A stretch of 64,000 nt of DNA from Octopus vulgaris. Its lineage: Eukaryota. The DNA lies in NCBI GenBank assembly GCA_951406725.2, contig OX597817.1, forward strand, positions 75,950,001-76,014,000. The letters are read 5' to 3'. Every line of letters begins with the position of its first letter. Position 1 is the stretch's first letter. The notes below the pieces were generated by a model that saw only the letters and a program-made list of their open reading frames with translations, did no database searches and was not told where the DNA came from. The position numbers and the translations under genes were made by a program. This document shows, piece after piece, positions 23,795-34,959 of the stretch.

Positions 23795-24000
23795 TAATAT
23801 GTAAGCTATGATACAGACAAACGACTAAAGGAGGTTGAAATAGAACGCCCGGTAGAGCTCCTACAGAAAGTTTACTTCTTAGAAATAGCAAGGATTATCA
23901 AGAGGGTTCTAAGCTCTTGAAAGACTACCGAAAACGTATGGATACCCACTTCCACATAAATCCTACCCGGAATAAAATGAAACCCGAGCTTTGTTTCTAT
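23795..24000 (+). mobile_element. Short 3' fragment of a further Dong-like LINE subfamily
   Basis: Translates DKRLKEVEIERPVELLQKVYFLEIARIIKRVLSS*, matching the QK..L.TA.ILRR.L C-terminus of the neighbours; followed by (AAT/GAT)n. Confidence 0.6.
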
Positions 24001-24192
24001 AATAATGATGATGATGATTATGATGATGATGATGATAATAATAATAATAATAATAATAATAATAATAATAATAATAATAATAATAATAATAATAATAATA
24101 ACAACAACAACAACAATAACAACAGCAACAACGATGATAACAACAACAACACCAACAACAATAATAATAATAATAATAATAATAATAATAAA

Positions 24193-24748
24193 ATGCCCTG
24201 ATGCAGCACCAGGCAATGGCTCTCATGGCTTCTGATCTGAACTGATTGGAAGTGTCATCATGTATATTGTTTTGTCTTGGTATAAAAGATGGGCTACAGC
24301 AAATATTCTACTCAATACCACAGATTTGCTTGTCAGTTGTTTGACCTTAACCAGTTGAGCATGTCCCTTAGTGGCTGACGATATGTGCATCTCTGATCAC
24401 GAACAGAAGTAGTGGGGGAGTATCATAACCATTTGTTGAGAGGAATTCTTTGGGGTTTGAATAATTCACCTCTGGAAACATGGGTGTTTCATTCAACATT
24501 CTTAACCAACCCTTATTCAGGGACCTGTTGAGCGGGATGGGTTACTCGACAAGAAGAAAATTCTAACTGGGCCCCCACCTGTATGGTCATGTGCTGCTTA
24601 TCTTGATATGAGATCACCCTGTTGCACACCTATGGTTGTGATGCATGTACTTATGTACCCTTATCAGACGGGTAGTCACGATGAGTATTCTGGGCTTCGT
24701 ATATTTTACCCCAGTGTCACTTTGATGGCATGCTCTGCTTTGTCACTC
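24193..24748 (+). mobile_element. ~555-bp non-coding repeat inserted in (AAT)n (non-autonomous element or long 3'UTR remnant)
   Basis: GC-richer block bounded exactly by (AAT)n on both sides, with no RT/EN ORF. It resembles an abundant octopus repeat I recall; strand is inferred from the tail. Confidence 0.6.
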
Positions 24749-24872
24749 AATAATAATTATAATAATAATACTAATAATAATGATGATGATGATGATGATG
24801 ATGATGATGATGATAATAATAATAATAATAATAATAATAATAATAATAATAATAATAATAATAATAATATTA

Positions 24873-27655
24873 ACTGAGCTAATCTCTGGAAATGATGTAA
24901 GATCAAGAAAAGGTAGGAAGATTGTGAGAAAATATGGACATCAAGAAGAGAAGAACTAATGTCAGCGAAAGAAACACTTAAACAAAAAGTTCAAGCAAAA
25001 GCTCAGAGAATACGCAGATTTGAGAAAAGAATCAAATTCTACAAACAAAATAAGATGTTCAAATCCATTGCCAAATCATTTTACAGGGAAATAGGGAAAG
25101 AAAAAATGGAAGAAGTTGAAAACTTTTGGAAGGGGATCTGGAGTGATGAGAAACCATACAATGAAAATGCAGAGTGGATCAAACGCACCCAAGATGATTA
25201 CAAAATTCTACAAGAACAGGTATGGGAAGACATCTCAATCGCCGACCTAAGGAGAGCACTAACGAAGGCTCATAAGTGGAAATCTCCTGGTATTGATAGA
25301 GTACCAAATTTCTGGCTCTCATCACTCTCGTCCGCACACAAAATGTTAGTAATACTATTTAATAGTATTATGAAAGACCCGAAAAAACACCACATTGGAT
25401 GGCAAATGGTATTACTTACCTCCTCCCCCAAAAATAACAAAACGAAAACCCAAAATACTATCGGCCTACAACATGTTTATCTACTACCTATAAGATCTTG
25501 ACATCTATTCTAGTAGAGAAAACATATACGTTTATCGAAGAGAATAACCTCTCTCCCACTGAACAAAAAGGATGCAGACGAGGCTCATACGGATGCAAAG
25601 ATCAGCTCCTAATTAATCGCATGATCCTTGAGAACTGCCATAACAAGCGCAGAAATCTCAGCTCTTCATGGATTGATTATAAAAAAGCCTTTGACAGCAT
25701 ACCAAATTCGTGGATTCTGAAATCGCTGGACATTTTCAAAATTTCTCCTGTGATTTCAGATTTTTAAAATTATAATATGTCACTATGGAACACGAAGCTC
25801 CAATTATATCATTCTAATGGAGTATTGCACTCAAACAACATTAGCATAAACTGTGGAGTTTTCCAAGGTGACTAACTTTCACCACTAATATTCTGCATAG
25901 CACTAATACCACTCTCAAGTGAACTGAATAGAACAGGATATGGCTACAAAATTGACAACAAGAAAATAAGCCATCTATTTTATATGGATGAGTTAAAGCT
26001 ATATGGCAAAGATGATGAAGAGCTTGAAGGATTATTACATACTGTGAAAGGATTCAGTGATGATATCGGGATGGAGTTTGGCCTTAAAAGTGTGCCAAAG
26101 CCACTTTTAAGAAAGGGAAATTGGTAAAGTCTAGTTCAATCGAATTAGATGTCGAAATAGTAATAAAGGAACTTGAGCAGGAACAAACCTATAAATACCT
26201 AGGAATAAATGAAGGCTCTGGTATCCAGCATGCAAGCATGAAAGAGAAGGTTAGGAAAGAATGTTATAGAAGAGTTCGAGCAGTCCTGAAGTCTGAGCTG
26301 AATGCATATAATAAGATTTTAGCCATAAATTCCTTAGCAGTACCAGTTGTTCTTTATAGCTTCAATGTGCTTAACTGGAATACTAGTGAAATAATGAAAA
26401 TTGACAGGAAAATCCGCAAGCTACTGACTTGTAATAAGATGCACCATCCAAAGGCAGACGTGGATCGCATTTACCTTCCCAGAGCTCAGAGAGGTCGAGG
26501 TTTGATCCAGCTTGAACTTACATACAAAACCACCACAATCGGACTGGCCAAATACCTTGAAGCAACCAACGATTGGATGCTAAAACTTGTTGAAAAACAT
26601 GAAAGACCTAAAAAACTTTACTCTATTCTCAAAGAGAGTTAAAAATTCGCTGCTGATCTCTTAGATACCCGCCAGATTGACCAGGCTGAAGGAAATGCGC
26701 CAACTGCAGCTGCAAAGAAGATAAAATTAATTGCAAAGACAAAAGCACATGAAAATTTAACTAGCAGATGGGAACAGAAACCTTTCCATGGCAAGTATGT
26801 GGCCCGTAGCAAACAAGCTGATGTCGACTTGAAACACACGCACCAATGGTTACGAAGTTCAGGGCTAAAAGCAGAGAGTGAAGGTTTCATATTAGCTGCT
26901 CAAGACCAAAGCTTATTTACTCGGAACTACCAAGCCAATGTGATGAAAAATAGAGCTGACCCAAAATGCCGATTCTGTAACGATGAGATTGAAACAATAG
27001 ACCACCTAATCTCAGGGTGTAGAGTCTTAGCGCCCGCAGAATATAAAGCAAGACATGACAGAGTCGGCCAGTATTTACATTGGACAATATGTTGGCATTA
27101 TAAAATCAAAACCGCTGACAAATGGTATAAACATCATCCTGAAGCTGTGACTGAGGAAGAAAATGTGTCGATTCTATGGGACTTCCCCGTGCAGACCGAC
27201 AGGACTATAAAAGCCAATAAACCGGATATCATTATAAAAGATCAGACAAAAAGGATGTGTTTATTAATTGACATGAGTATTCCCTGTGATCACAATATAG
27301 CGGCGAAAGAATTTGACAAGATTAGTAAATATAAAGACCTGCTAATGGACATTGAAAAAATGTGGCATCTCAAGGCGACTACAGTACCAGTGATTGTAGG
27401 ATCTCTAGGAATGATAAAAATACGCACTGAAACCTATTTGAAAATGATTCCAGGCTTACCATCCCTACAGGAAGTGCAAAAAATCGTATTAACTGCAACG
27501 GCTCATGTACTGAGAAGAGCACTATCGCTGTGAAAATAACATCCATCCATGAATTTATTTATTTATTTATTAATTTTTAAATGCATATTTTATCTGTGAA
27601 TTTACGCATGTAATCTGGGAATGCATACAATGCCCTTCTCTGCCCTAGATGTCTC
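24873..27655 (+). mobile_element. R4/Dong-clade non-LTR retrotransposon (REL endonuclease), subfamily A; 5'-truncated, decayed
   Basis: ORF pieces 24959-25501, 25498-25767, 26121-26642 and 26799-27533 give RT motifs (KSPGIDRVPNFW, EQKGCRRGSYGCKDQL, WIDYKKAFDS, YMDE for YMDD), a CCHC knuckle CRFCNDEIETIDHLISGC, RHD, and REL motifs KPDIIIKD..LIDMSIP..K..KY. Preceded by (AAT)n; the 3'UTR is cut by a SINE at ~27656. Confidence 0.93.
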
Positions 27656-33052: not shown

Positions 33053-33304
33053 TAATAATAATAATAATAATAATAATAATAATAATAATAATAATAATAA
33101 TAATAATAATAATAATAATAATGATAACAATATACTGGAAAAAAAAAAGGCATCGGAGAGGCGATGCATACCTTGCACACATAATTTTTTTTGTAAATTA
33201 TAGTGTGGCTTACAATGCGTTGCTCATCCAGGTATTTTAATTGAACTGAATTGGGTTTTTTTTAAGTATCACAATTATATTTATTTATACTCCACTGAAT
33301 TAAG

Positions 33305-33835
33305 AAACCCTCGAATCCATCACTTTACACACACATACACACATACACACACACACGCACACACACAGTCACATATGTATGTATGTACTCACACGTTTCT
33401 ACGCGCATGATCTATACACACGCAGACGATGGTCACTTCATATGAAATAAAATATGAACAAAATAATATGACCATTTACTCATCGGGAAATTTTAAAGTT
33501 CAATTTTATTTCATTTCTTTTATTTATATAGGTTTTGTTAAGTATTATCATTATAGGTAATTATACTCCGGTGAAATTAAGAAATCAACTCGTAAATAAA
33601 CGAAACACTCGAATCCATCACTTTACACACACGAACGAGTACACACACACACAGTCGCATATGTTTGTATGTATGTATGTATGTATGTATGTATGTATGT
33701 ACCCACACATGTCTACGCGCATAGGTACAACATGATCTACAAAGACGCAGACGCAGGTCGATTCATATGGAAAATAAAATGAAGAAAGCAACATAATCGC
33801 TTGCTTATCGGGAAATTTGTAAGTTCGATTTTTTT
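33305..33835 (+). repeat. Local ~300-bp tandem duplication
   Basis: ctcgaatccatcactttacacacac..tctacgcgcat..gcagacg..atcgggaaattt at 33305-33510 and 33602-33835. Confidence 0.75.
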
Positions 33836-34049
33836 AAAAAAGTTAAATTTTTTTTTTTAAAGATAATCAATCAGAATGATCGTCATTTCAAGCCACTCAC
33901 CCAATGAGTATTTCTGCCAAAATTACTGAAAATCCGTTCAGCCTTTTTCCAGGATTTTTGCCAACACAGGAATTTCAGTACCCTGCTTTCGCTTACACGT
34001 GCAGGGTAATATTAATAAGCATCAACTTAGGTGAGGAAGATCGAAAGAA

Positions 34050-34770
34050 TTTAGATGAGCTGAAGGAAGCAACGAGAAAAAAGAAAGAAAAAGATTAGCA
34101 GTATTAAACATATTAATAAAAGGAAGTTACTAGACGCTACAAGGAAAGTAGATCCTGTTTATCAGTAGGATAGATACTAAAAATATAGGTGACACCAACT
34201 TATTGATTTATCCAGGAGGGGTAGTATTTACTAGGAGAATAGGTATCCTTCAAGGAAAGGACAGGAAGGAGCAGATGTGGAACCAGATATTATAAAATAA
34301 AATGGAGACTTTATGACAAAACATGAGTATAACAGAAGCCTGAAAACAGGACAAATTAGAATATACAATATTTAAATCTTCTCTTGAGAAAAAATGCTTT
34401 GTCAAAGAGAAGGCGTATAATAGCAATAGAAGGTGAAATTTCCAGATATCAGTACAGAATAAATCAGTATTAACAGAACAGATTGTTAGAGCTGGACCGG
34501 AGGAGATTTTCTCGCCAAATAAATTGGATAAAAGCGACTACTGAAGATGAGAAGCTTAATGCTGAGGAAGCTAGAAAGTTCTGGAGTGATATTTGGGATA
34601 AGCCAGTTAACCATAATGGAGATGCATCATGGTTAAAGAAAGTGAGGGAAAAAGTATTTAGTGAGATGCAACCAAATCTAAAGCTAACTAGCGCATTAAA
34701 GAATAAAGTGTTAGGAAGAATGCTGATGTTAGGAATATTTTTCCAACAGTCTAATCTGTTGTGCGCAAAT
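34050..34770 (+). mobile_element. Decayed Dong/R4-like LINE fragment (region N-terminal to RT)
   Basis: SRYQYRINQY*QNRLLELDRRRF..AEEARKFWSDIWDKPVNHNGDASWLKKV parallels RIRRFEKRIKFYKQNKMF..ENFWKGIW..NAEWI in copy A; followed by an AAT run. Confidence 0.7.
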
Positions 34771-34959
34771 GAAATAATAATAATAATAATGATTATCATT
34801 ATTATATCTTTTATTTGCGAGAAGATCCCAATACATTAAGAACTGCATCAAATGATGAAAGACAGCTCAAGAAAATTAGGGCTTCCATCAAAAGAAAAAT
34901 AAGGATATAACAAAAGATATAAAAACAGAACTCAGAAAAATAGATAAATAGAATCTCCA

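Follow-up and report, generated by a model that had tools for sequence, protein, structure and literature searches.

Why should several R4/Dong-type LINEs lie head to tail within one microsatellite of Octopus vulgaris? We examined this locus in a window of 64,000 nucleotides (the whole stretch of DNA analysed), for which an initial annotation had proposed a single-strand array of eight such elements at 23795..34790. The array is probably a stack of R4/Dong copies from four lineages, an unclassified insert and opposite-strand SINE-like pieces that accumulated through separate insertions over a long period, each predicted to have left usable AAT on both sides. The pile-up likely arose because every insertion supplied new AAT in which a later one could land.

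Extent and composition of the array

The contiguous array spans 23469-33132 (9.7 kb) and contains, between short AAT-type tracts, six 5′-truncated R4/Dong-type LINEs on the plus strand (u1 and u3-u7), one unclassified insert (u2) and two minus-strand SINE-like pieces (Table 1). The annotated start thus moves to ~23469 and the end to 33132, leaving u8 outside. In-phase AAT/GAT tracts separate the copies; u4-u7 have only tract between them and retain intact 3′ ends. Within the window, which contains no N, the array is flanked by 23 and 31 kb of other DNA. Dong-R4 sequence accounts for 13.9% of the window; for the O. vulgaris assembly the figure is 3.3%.

A search of the complete window in six-frame translation, with a profile made from 92 full-length homologs (out of 120 listed), gave matches on the plus strand only. 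Unit boundaries were set partly by eye, and profile and alignment starts agree within ~10 nt for u1, u3, u4, u5, u6 and u7. R4-type coding sequence was found in seven of the eight annotated units (u1, u3-u8), six of them in the array. The array is single-stranded with respect to its R4 matches, but its two SINE-like inserts (23619-23766 and 27658-27751) lie on the minus strand.

The annotation of u2 (24193) as an R4/Dong unit is not sustained, as it has no detectable R4 coding sequence. Its three plus-strand frames match none of 158 R4 proteins or 7 window peptides, the profile finds nothing on either strand, a protein search with its longest frame gave no match, and it has neither an Rfam family nor the 3′ hairpin described below. 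Because all of these searches were empty, we leave u2 unclassified; no search supported reading it as part of a Dong element, as a ribozyme or tRNA, or as a repeat that encodes protein.

Likewise, u8 (34050) is an internal fragment rather than an array member. It matches only profile positions ~200-411, is separated from the nearest upstream tract by 925 bp that include unrelated DNA, and has an AAT tract on its 3′ side only. Reading u1 and u8 as halves of one split element was rejected, since the 3′ piece would lie upstream of the 5′ piece. Elsewhere in the window, tracts are missing for 6.9 kb on either side of an R4-like fragment at 51859, and a second RT lies at 45767 on the plus strand.

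Table 1. Features of the array and its right flank (window coordinates).
Feature	Position	Strand	Description and support
T0	23469..23627	+	Decayed GAT/GAC/AAC tract; left array edge
SINE-like piece	23619..23766	-	Within tract; tRNA-type head by A/B-box-like motifs in sister copies; E 3e-21
T1	23764..23799	+	Decayed short AAT/GAT tract
u1	23795..23998	+	Old 3′ remnant of R4-type LINE, lineage C; last ~40 codons and 3′ UTR; profile, 0/300 shuffles
T2	23999..24192	+	Compound GAT/AAT/AAC tract, 194 bp
u2	24193..24748		Unclassified non-coding insert, 556 bp; AAT both sides; no R4/Dong signal detected
T3	24749..24870	+	AAT/GAT tract, 122 bp
u3	24868..27652	+	5′-truncated R4/Dong LINE, lineage A1; profile, motifs (RT YMDD reads YMDE 25981; CCHC 26967; KPD 27219); 4 stops, 2 frame switches; 3′ end lost within hairpin
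SINE-like head piece	27658..27751	-	Joined to u3 at probable deletion breakpoint; E 5.6e-18
T4	27752..27872	+	AAT then GAT tract, 121 bp
u4	27870..28219	+	Old 3′ piece, lineage B, 77% to u6; 4-nt 5′-junction microhomology; hairpin 28156
T5	28220..28333	+	AAT tract, 114 bp
u5	28332..28686	+	3′ piece, lineage A1, 92% to u3; 3′ end complete; hairpin 28622
T6	28684..28773	+	CAT/AAT tract, 90 bp
u6	28774..31524	+	5′-truncated R4/Dong LINE, lineage B; RVT_1 E 2.9e-32; YMDD 29869; CCHC 30859; RPD 31111; 1 stop, 2 frame switches; hairpin 31461
T7	31525..31548	+	Pure (AAT)8
u7	31549..33052	+	Youngest copy, lineage A2; open 445-codon frame; CCHC 32319; KPD 32571; 4-nt 5′-junction microhomology; hairpin 32992
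T8	33053..33132	+	Pure (TAA)23; right edge of contiguous array
u8	34050..34772	+	Decayed internal pre-RT fragment, deeper R4-type subclade; ~920 bp unrelated DNA after T8
(AAT)6	34773-34790	+	Directly 3′ of u8

Identity of the LINE copies

The array LINEs encode a reverse transcriptase (RT), a CCHC motif and a PD-(D/E)xK endonuclease. The motifs CCHC, RHD, (K/R)PDI, IDxSIP and K..KY are present in u3, u6 and u7, with endonuclease and CCHC downstream of a non-LTR RT domain (Table 1) whose closest solved structures are R2 proteins. For u1, a 40-residue C-terminal remnant, the best and mean scores were reached by none of 300 shuffles. Together with the profile matches, the RT, CCHC and restriction-like endonuclease (REL) motifs support the R4/Dong-type assignment of the six array units.

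Among proteins with a name, a Pediculus RT comes closest (43% over 447 residues); the species appears in the R4/Dong alignment of PMC7998251, although the accession was not matched to that alignment. Our tree comprises 72 mostly unnamed sequences, with named Dong, R4 and Rex6 not among them, and an Atlas search for named relatives returned only unnamed eukaryotic clusters. A scan of prokaryotic genomes gave 2 loci among 64 candidate stretches, and an Rfam scan of L002 gave no match.

Passages of PMC3774820 and PMC7998251 describe, respectively, a 5′ HDV-like ribozyme and an N-terminal SANT/Myb-like domain in the R4/Dong clade. The window copies differ in that none keeps its 5′ end: no unit extends upstream of profile position ~200, so that the SANT/Myb-like region is not covered, and an Rfam scan of 23000-37000, where all copies are 5′-truncated, found no ribozyme family. 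The clade is marked by a single ORF that lacks an APE endonuclease and R2-type N-terminal zinc fingers; the two full-length homologs scanned, P0002 and P0085, carry RVT_1 and zf-RVT only.

Lineages and relative ages

At least four subfamilies had been proposed, and this was borne out by lineages A1 (u3, u5), A2 (u7), B (u4, u6) and C (u1). Lineages A and B share 53-54% amino-acid identity with saturated dS. In the 72-sequence tree u3 and u7 group with support 1.0, and they stand farther from u6 (1.33) than from foreign homologs (0.65). Across 445 codons u3 and u7 differ at 63/35/176 sites in codon positions 1/2/3 (dN/dS 0.097, dS 1.14), and this low ratio indicates two source lineages under selection rather than a local duplicate. 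The differences between u3 and u5 are even over codon positions (4/5/3), a pattern compatible with a pair of insertions derived from the same source and equally with local duplication.

The copies are also clearly of different ages, as proposed: lesions number 0/445 codons in u7, 3/865 in u6 and 6/874 in u3, while u4 has 5 frame-breaking gaps in ~250 nt. Each unit has a distinct truncation point and no pair exceeds 92% identity. These data support independent insertions of different age. The age order is not monotone, u3 being younger than the downstream u4; an old-to-young order within each half is suggested, but weakly.

Target polarity and regrowth

The 5′ ends of seven of the eight units fall within -8..+15 nt of a plus-strand AAT/GAT tract end, a zone that makes up 0.7% of the window, and the 3′ ends of seven of eight lie no more than 17 nt from a tract. 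With all R4 matches on the plus strand, the proposed fixed orientation to the AAT strand is supported within the array. The description of units parted mostly by (AAT)n/(GAT)n alone requires exceptions for the 3′ end of u3, which abuts a SINE-like piece, and for u8. AAT lies on both sides of u1, u4, u5, u6 and u7 and on the 5′ side of u3. All perfect runs in the window are on the plus strand (12/12 (AAT)≥5 and 6/6 (GAT)≥5).

Passages of PMC7998251 and PMC3812793 report Dong targeting of (TAA)n in insects, molluscs and cnidarians, and part of PMC3774820 places the TAA upstream on the sense strand. Among O. vulgaris transcripts (PMC9115989 file 9), three of the four Dong-R4 matches seen with an AAT/ATT tract share this polarity, one of them carrying (TAA)n, a minus-strand OR2 SINE and a plus-strand R4; the discordant transcript has (ATT)n ahead of a plus match. 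Read-through into AAT/GAT at homologous protein ends, used as a target proxy, occurred in none of 158 proteins.

The spacers sum to ~913 bp, compared with 50 and 133 bp for lone tracts, which supports net regrowth of the target. The purest tracts surround u7, the youngest copy. The idea that each insertion splits and regenerates its target is upheld only as net regrowth, which could come from insertion itself or from later slippage; target-site duplications are unreadable within the microsatellite. The two long lone tracts, at 3710 and 36273, carry no R4; like the tract-free fragment at 51859 and the missing 5′ tract of u8, they count against this account.

SINE-like pieces and a probable deletion

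SINE-like copies adjoin AAT tracts at 23766, 27751 and 36271. Their copies show A/B-box-like motifs, which we take to mark the head of a tRNA-type SINE, on the minus strand in 5/5 cases and on the plus strand in 0/5. Two copies, at 52472 and 55177, are flanked by duplications of 12 and 14 bp that finish with AATATT, lengths reached by 5/300 and 2/300 random pairs, respectively; duplications were clearly above chance at two of eight loci. A tRNA model found no Rfam match in a SINE-like copy, and the strand assignment therefore rests on the A/B-box-like motifs and flanking duplications. All ten well-scoring loci of this family, spread over 55 kb, lie on one strand (p 0.002 post hoc, or 0.012 when one weak opposite match is counted), whereas a second repeat family occurs in both orientations.

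The 3′ end of u3 is lost, and what remains runs straight into the interior of the second SINE piece. This is a probable deletion junction, at ~27652, and the event may have fused two smaller arrays.

5′ junctions and a shared 3′-UTR hairpin

Three 5′ junctions have a longer relative in the window, and two of these (u4 and u7) show 4-nt microhomology to the AAT strand, with a chance expectation of 2-3% each; u5 shows none with either proxy relative.

The 3′ UTRs of u4-u7 share a hairpin in which 90.5% of 42 cells are paired, compared with 29-43% in slid controls, and five of 11 pairs carry compensatory changes, with both sides altered; the test involves four sequences, about three of them independent, from which the structure itself was derived. 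The motif occurs four times in the window, always at the 3′ ends of u4-u7. MFE z-scores are near zero for u5 and u7. Common to lineages only 53% alike in protein, the hairpin is a candidate for the RNA feature that R4/Dong proteins recognise. Along with the junction microhomology, it lends further support to independent insertion.

Proposed mechanism

In R2-group elements the REL endonuclease nicks the bottom (ATT) strand and the RT primes on the resulting 3′ end (target-primed reverse transcription), and early RT stops cause 5′ truncation. With nicking and priming on the bottom strand, all copies take up a single orientation with respect to the AAT strand. Each insertion here is predicted to start with such a nick in the microsatellite, with the protein perhaps recognising the conserved 3′-UTR hairpin. 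The truncated cDNA end may then anneal to the upstream AAT strand through a few bases, and the split tract could lengthen again if the target site is duplicated, if a (UAA)n RNA tail is copied or if slippage follows later. The SINE-like family would enter the same tracts on the other strand, at a target of its own of the AATA(T/A)T type. The later deletion at ~27652 would account for the missing u3 end and the missing portion of a SINE, and two smaller stacks may have been brought together by it. With every copy incomplete, the array would amount to a passive graveyard for which no function is needed.

Alternative explanations

A stronger version of this mechanism, possible though doubtful, is a directional ratchet in which each insertion writes a fresh pure AAT tract 3′ of the copy and the next element prefers that tract. 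Stacks would then extend downstream and preserve the order in which Dong lineages followed one another (old to young: SINE, u1, u2, u3; then SINE, u4, u5, u6, u7), with a SINE family using another endonuclease to seed and exploit tracts from the opposite strand. If true, thousands of such stacks would serve as a stratigraphic clock for the turnover of LINEs in the host.

A single locus fits either target regrowth or merely an insertion-tolerant region. In the latter case, which we consider unlikely, abundant AAT-seeking Dong elements entered several AAT tracts, many from SINE-associated slippage, and deletions merged the insertions, with regrowth playing a minor part. The junction at ~27652, the separate position of u8, the SINE-like copies beside AAT tracts, and, in O. 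vulgaris, the 92.7 Mb of Dong-R4 in 51 families and the repeat hotspots all accord with it. However, u4-u7 are linked by tract alone, their 3′ ends are intact, and two of the 5′ ends show microhomology. An illustrative model with an assumed mean of 0.5 inserts per founder tract gives at least seven inserts a probability of 4.6e-4 with regrowth and 1e-6 without, although the mean is an assumption and the count drops to 3-4 per stack if the array is a fusion.

Local duplication or unequal recombination between AAT tracts might have produced part of the array, given the order A-B-A-B-A, the u3/u5 and u4/u6 similarities and a neutral u3-u5 pattern (6 versus 8 changes). This is improbable: copying of an A-B pair predicts a single divergence and 8% and 23% are seen, each unit has its own truncation point, and u3 and u7 diverged under purifying selection. 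Tandem duplication of the pair was rejected, whereas u3/u5 alone may be a local duplicate.

Even less probable is retention by the host as a one-strand piRNA trap or antisense-tolerant intron that selects insert orientation. The R4 matches, the RT at 45767 and the SINE-like family each keep to one strand, but target polarity alone accounts for orientation within the array, LINEs and SINEs face opposite ways, the second repeat family does not conform, and lone AAT tracts outside the array divide 4 to 1 by strand. A host gene around the array was also sought: 98 of 122 frames (at least 70 residues) gave no Pfam match to a host domain, the other 24 having been scanned previously or lying on SINE or simple repeats; short exons could still be present.

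An assembly artefact that joined separate loci through AAT tracts is scarcely credible, for although all junctions are microsatellite and such joins would keep polarity, the tracts are only 25-194 bp (24 bp between u6 and u7), the window has no gaps of N, no pair of units is more than 92% identical, and microhomology links 5′ ends to their own tracts.

Relation to known systems

Telomeric arrays (HeT-A/TART/TAHRE; TRAS/SART) are also head-to-tail, 5′-truncated and of mixed families, at chromosome ends or in telomeric repeats, and are formed by APE/gag-type elements. The proposed analogy with an interstitial telomeric array holds for geometry only; here, however, the elements belong to the REL type, neither strand of the window has TTAGGG or TTAGG repeated twice or more, and the old u4 lies downstream of the younger u3. 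TRAS and SART enter one repeat on opposite strands, which is a nearer parallel to the sharing of tracts by Dong and SINE copies.

In Alu-into-Alu insertion at A-rich stretches, as part of PMC2836564 describes, a retroposon likewise provides the target of later copies in sense orientation, but Alu is non-autonomous and depends on the weakly specific, APE-type L1 endonuclease, unlike the array LINEs. Utopia, in U2 snRNA genes, is a site-specific REL element found in tandem, with mixed families per array in Phytophthora according to passages of PMC4640811; its target is a multicopy RNA gene, whereas here it is a self-extending microsatellite.

The closest relatives are B. mori Dong, DongAg, DongBg, D. 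stevensoni Dong and octopus LINE/Dong-R4, which share the RT and the C-terminal REL and, in passages of PMC7998251, PMC3812793 and PMC3774820, the sense-strand (TAA)n target. Those passages deal with single insertions, whereas here six copies of four lineages share a tract with opposite-strand SINEs. In O. vulgaris 51 Dong-R4 families coexist, 5 of them recently active (PMC13282606). Consecutive R4 copies also occur in a butterfly gene model, a beetle gene model and one other contig. Our search found no published Dong array; Kojima and Fujiwara 2004 or Repbase reports, outside that search, may describe such arrays.

At a single locus, the array illustrates how a LINE that targets a microsatellite can multiply that target and help to account for the abundance of both AAT repeats and Dong-R4 DNA in some animal genomes. 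Existing genomes allow tests for a heavy-tailed number of inserts per tract and for one-direction stack growth that orders LINE families in time. To a specialist the array itself is expected rather than surprising, and the pile-up would be a side effect of a known targeting habit, not a new system. Dong targeting of (TAA)n, including in molluscs, and multi-family tandem arrays of Utopia are already known, and to these the locus adds a new example.

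Composition of the array

The initial annotation had proposed a head-to-tail array of eight plus-strand R4/Dong-type LINE units (u1 to u8). With the open frame of u7 as query, the best homolog shows 67% identity, and among the homologs listed (120 of the 189 longer ones) most are unnamed reverse transcriptase (RT) proteins of 1100-1250 residues. A profile was built from the 92 homologs that measure 1050-1300 residues and searched against all six reading frames of the whole window; its matches were confined to the plus strand. RVT_1 is recognized in u6 (E 2.9e-32), and the restriction-like endonuclease motifs CCHC, RHD, PD and K..KY follow the RT in u3, u6 and u7. 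The 5′ end is missing in every R4 copy, and the solved structures related to these units are of R2 proteins only. u1 is weak in the profile; against homolog C-termini, it scores above 300 of 300 shuffles.

Features of the array and its surroundings
Feature	Positions	Strand	Profile positions	Assignment
Contiguous array	23469-33132			
u1	23795-23998	+	1149-1185	lineage C
u2	24193-24748			unclassified
u3	24868-27652	+	~290-1185	lineage A1
u4	27870-28219	+	1112-1185	lineage B
u5	28332-28686	+	1129-1185	lineage A1
u6	28774-31524	+	301-1186	lineage B
u7	31549-33052	+	742-1186	lineage A2
u8	34050-34772	+	200-411	internal fragment
SINE-like pieces in array	23619-23766, 27658-27751	−		
Well-scoring SINE-like loci	1074, 12085, 13463-14108, 23619, 27658, 36055, 52472, 53756, 55177, 55409	all same strand		
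SINE-like family, internal tandem unit	13607-14028			
SINE-like, full copy between tracts	36014-36404			
SINE-like copy, 12-bp duplication	52468-52707			
SINE-like, two tandem copies	55171-55803			
Decayed direct repeat	33304-33510, 33602-33835			
u8 end to (AAT)6	34723-34790			
Second RT	45722-46579	+		other clade
GIY-YIG match	48930-49391	+		
Old R4-like fragment	51859-52074	+		C-terminal
Inverted-repeat elements	9646-10471, 11766-11987, 38040-38432, 47584-48256, 56610-56860, 60722-62742			probably MITE-like

The array is real and its R4-type units stand, but its membership changes: u2 and u8 drop out, and two SINE-like pieces enter. Inserts account for about 8,750 bp of the contiguous stretch, and spacer for 913 bp. 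Profile, protein, Rfam and hairpin searches of u2 found no coding, Rfam or hairpin similarity. This 556-bp segment, single copy in the window and adjoined by AAT on both sides, is T-rich and CpG-poor, in contrast to LINE coding strands; it would be a non-autonomous rider or come from the 3′ UTR of some other LINE. The nearest tract upstream of u8 is 925 bp away, and the gap between array and u8 holds a decayed direct repeat (69%). About 50 nt lie between the end of u8 coding similarity and its (AAT)6, and these could represent a genuine 3′ end that survived an internal deletion.

Two further plus-strand profile matches lie at 51859, in an old fragment with no AAT tract nearby, and at 45767, in a more distant RT (RVT_1 E 2.4e-23). 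Together with a GIY-YIG match of weak significance (E 0.004), this second RT possibly represents a Penelope-like or other retroelement. The window contains zero N, has a GC content of 30-44% for the most part and is rich in simple repeats throughout (150 of 224 repeat rows listed). Its composition and SINE-like repeats suggest an octopus host. Its inverted-repeat elements (arms 72-98%) are probably MITE-like DNA transposons.

Lineages and ages

Identity, dN/dS, tree and subclade scores bear out the proposal of at least four subfamilies, and four is a fair minimum for the array. u3 and u7 are 80% identical, with 63, 35 and 176 differences by codon position and a dN/dS of 0.097, which argues for separate source lineages. 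By sequence comparison, u3 and u5 (92%; differences 4/5/3; lineage-specific changes 6 versus 8) appear to share a source and a similar age. Protein identity of u6 to u3 or u7 is 53-54%, with dS saturated; u4 is nearest u6 (77%; differences 22/11/24) and has seven gaps, five of them frame-breaking. A tree of 464 columns was computed with FastTree from three units of the window, two of contig CBDHDV010000061.1 and 67 of the 120 listed homologs. It groups u3 with u7 at support 1.0, nested among foreign homologs, and places u6 outside this group at a poorly supported position. Scores for u8 clearly favor a deeper subclade (152 versus 111), a preference that is slight for u1 (43 versus 40) and the 51859 fragment (60 versus 54).

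Lesions number 0 in 445 codons of u7, 3 in 865 of u6, 6 in 874 of u3 and 0 in 57 of u5. These counts point to unequal ages; p is about 0.05 for u7 versus u3 and about 0.2 for u7 versus u6.

Target tracts and insertion

A zone around plus-strand tract ends, which occupies 0.7% of the window, contains seven of the eight 5′ ends, more than chance would give. A fixed polarity of R4 copies relative to the AAT strand is supported. Likewise, seven of eight 3′ ends lie at most 17 nt from a tract. Perfect (AAT)n runs of at least five units are all on the plus strand (12/12), most of them within the array and not independent. Lone tracts of at least four units outside it are split 4 to 1 between strands, and both long ones are without an R4 copy.

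R2 elements nick the bottom strand and insert by target-primed reverse transcription. Such a route would fix the polarity of every copy. In u4 (compared with u6) and u7 (compared with u3 and u6), four identical bases in AAT phase precede the 5′ junction. Such microhomology, with a chance of 2-3% per junction, links the insertion event to the tract upstream of it. The u5 5′ junction has no microhomology.

Total spacer length suggests that the AAT target would be regrown between inserts by duplication, tail copying or slippage, routes that are not separable. In an illustrative model with an assumed mean of 0.5 inserts, at least seven inserts have a probability of 4.6e-4 with regrowth versus 1e-6 without, which illustrates the weight of regrowth, although the seven inserts here may belong to two fused stacks. 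Tracts flanking u7 are pure, and those flanking old inserts are compound.

A hairpin (stem, internal loop, stem) is kept 40-60 nt upstream of the 3′ end in u4 to u7. In five of its 11 pairs both partners have changed. Its covariation score was reached by none of 500 shuffles, in a test on the same four sequences from which the structure was derived. Minimum free energy support is strong in u4 and u6, and weak in u5 and u7. The u3 3′ UTR ends inside its hairpin, joined to the second SINE-like piece; the junction reads as a deletion, which may have fused separate stacks of three and four inserts.

Growth in one direction would make the array a record of the succession of LINE lineages, and each half, leaving aside u2 and the order of u5 and u6, appears to run from old to young. 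We regard such ordering as unlikely; T5, a long pure tract in the array, bears no later insert.

A SINE-like family on the opposite strand

Flanking duplications ending in AATATT (2 of 8 SINE-like loci tested) and minus-strand placement at all three AAT tracts that the family adjoins make it likely that this family depends on another endonuclease, acting on the opposite strand. One such duplication, of 14 bp, is common to two tandem copies and another, of 12 bp, is exact; elsewhere the family contains an internal 172-bp tandem unit. All ten well-scoring loci share one strand over 55 kb (1074-55803; p 0.002, post hoc), the exception being a weak 30-bp match at 45435 on the opposite strand. A second repeat family of the window occurs in both orientations. 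Host transcript or replication bias is a possible cause. One full copy sits between (CTA)n and (TAA)20(GAT)n tracts with the array polarity and no R4 insert, possibly the seed stage of an R4 stack.

R4 clusters elsewhere

Part of the profile is covered twice in 6 of 158 proteins. NCBI gene models from Euphydryas editha (P0121) and Callosobruchus analis (P0123) contain two and three consecutive R4 copies, each reaching the C-terminus; such models show orientation, not distance. Another R4-type protein (P0158) has an extra domain, PF02338. Contig CBDHDV010000061.1 (1-14268; 14.3 kb), filed under a bacterial MAG, carries five R4-like units on one strand that have a 5′ segment in common; AAT tracts are absent. 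Positions 3122-3170 appear similar to the 3′ end of 18S rRNA. The segment common to the units presumably contains an HDV-ribozyme-like loop, and the contig has no Rfam match at E 0.1. It is likely eukaryotic DNA with a differently targeted array.

RepeatMasker rows of O. vulgaris transcripts, in the available part of PMC9115989, include at least 39 for Dong-R4. Among the rows listed, four cases have an AAT/ATT tract in the same transcript, with polarity as in the array in three and opposite in one; three cases with GAT-type tracts have GAT (two) or CAT (one) on the element strand. Together, gene models, contig and transcripts indicate that co-oriented R4 clusters recur.

Comparison with known elements

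The best explanation of the array, which we hold with fairly good confidence, is a landing pad perpetuated by its own insertions, as initially suggested; competition between subfamilies, a function and the analogy to telomeres find no support. The literature searched, with most subscription papers outside its scope, contained no Dong array. The landing-pad reading follows from known Dong biology. Targeting of (TAA)n by Dong is already in print (PMC7998251, PMC3812793 and PMC3774820), as are multi-family tandem arrays of Utopia (PMC4640811) and self-insertion of Alu (PMC2836564).
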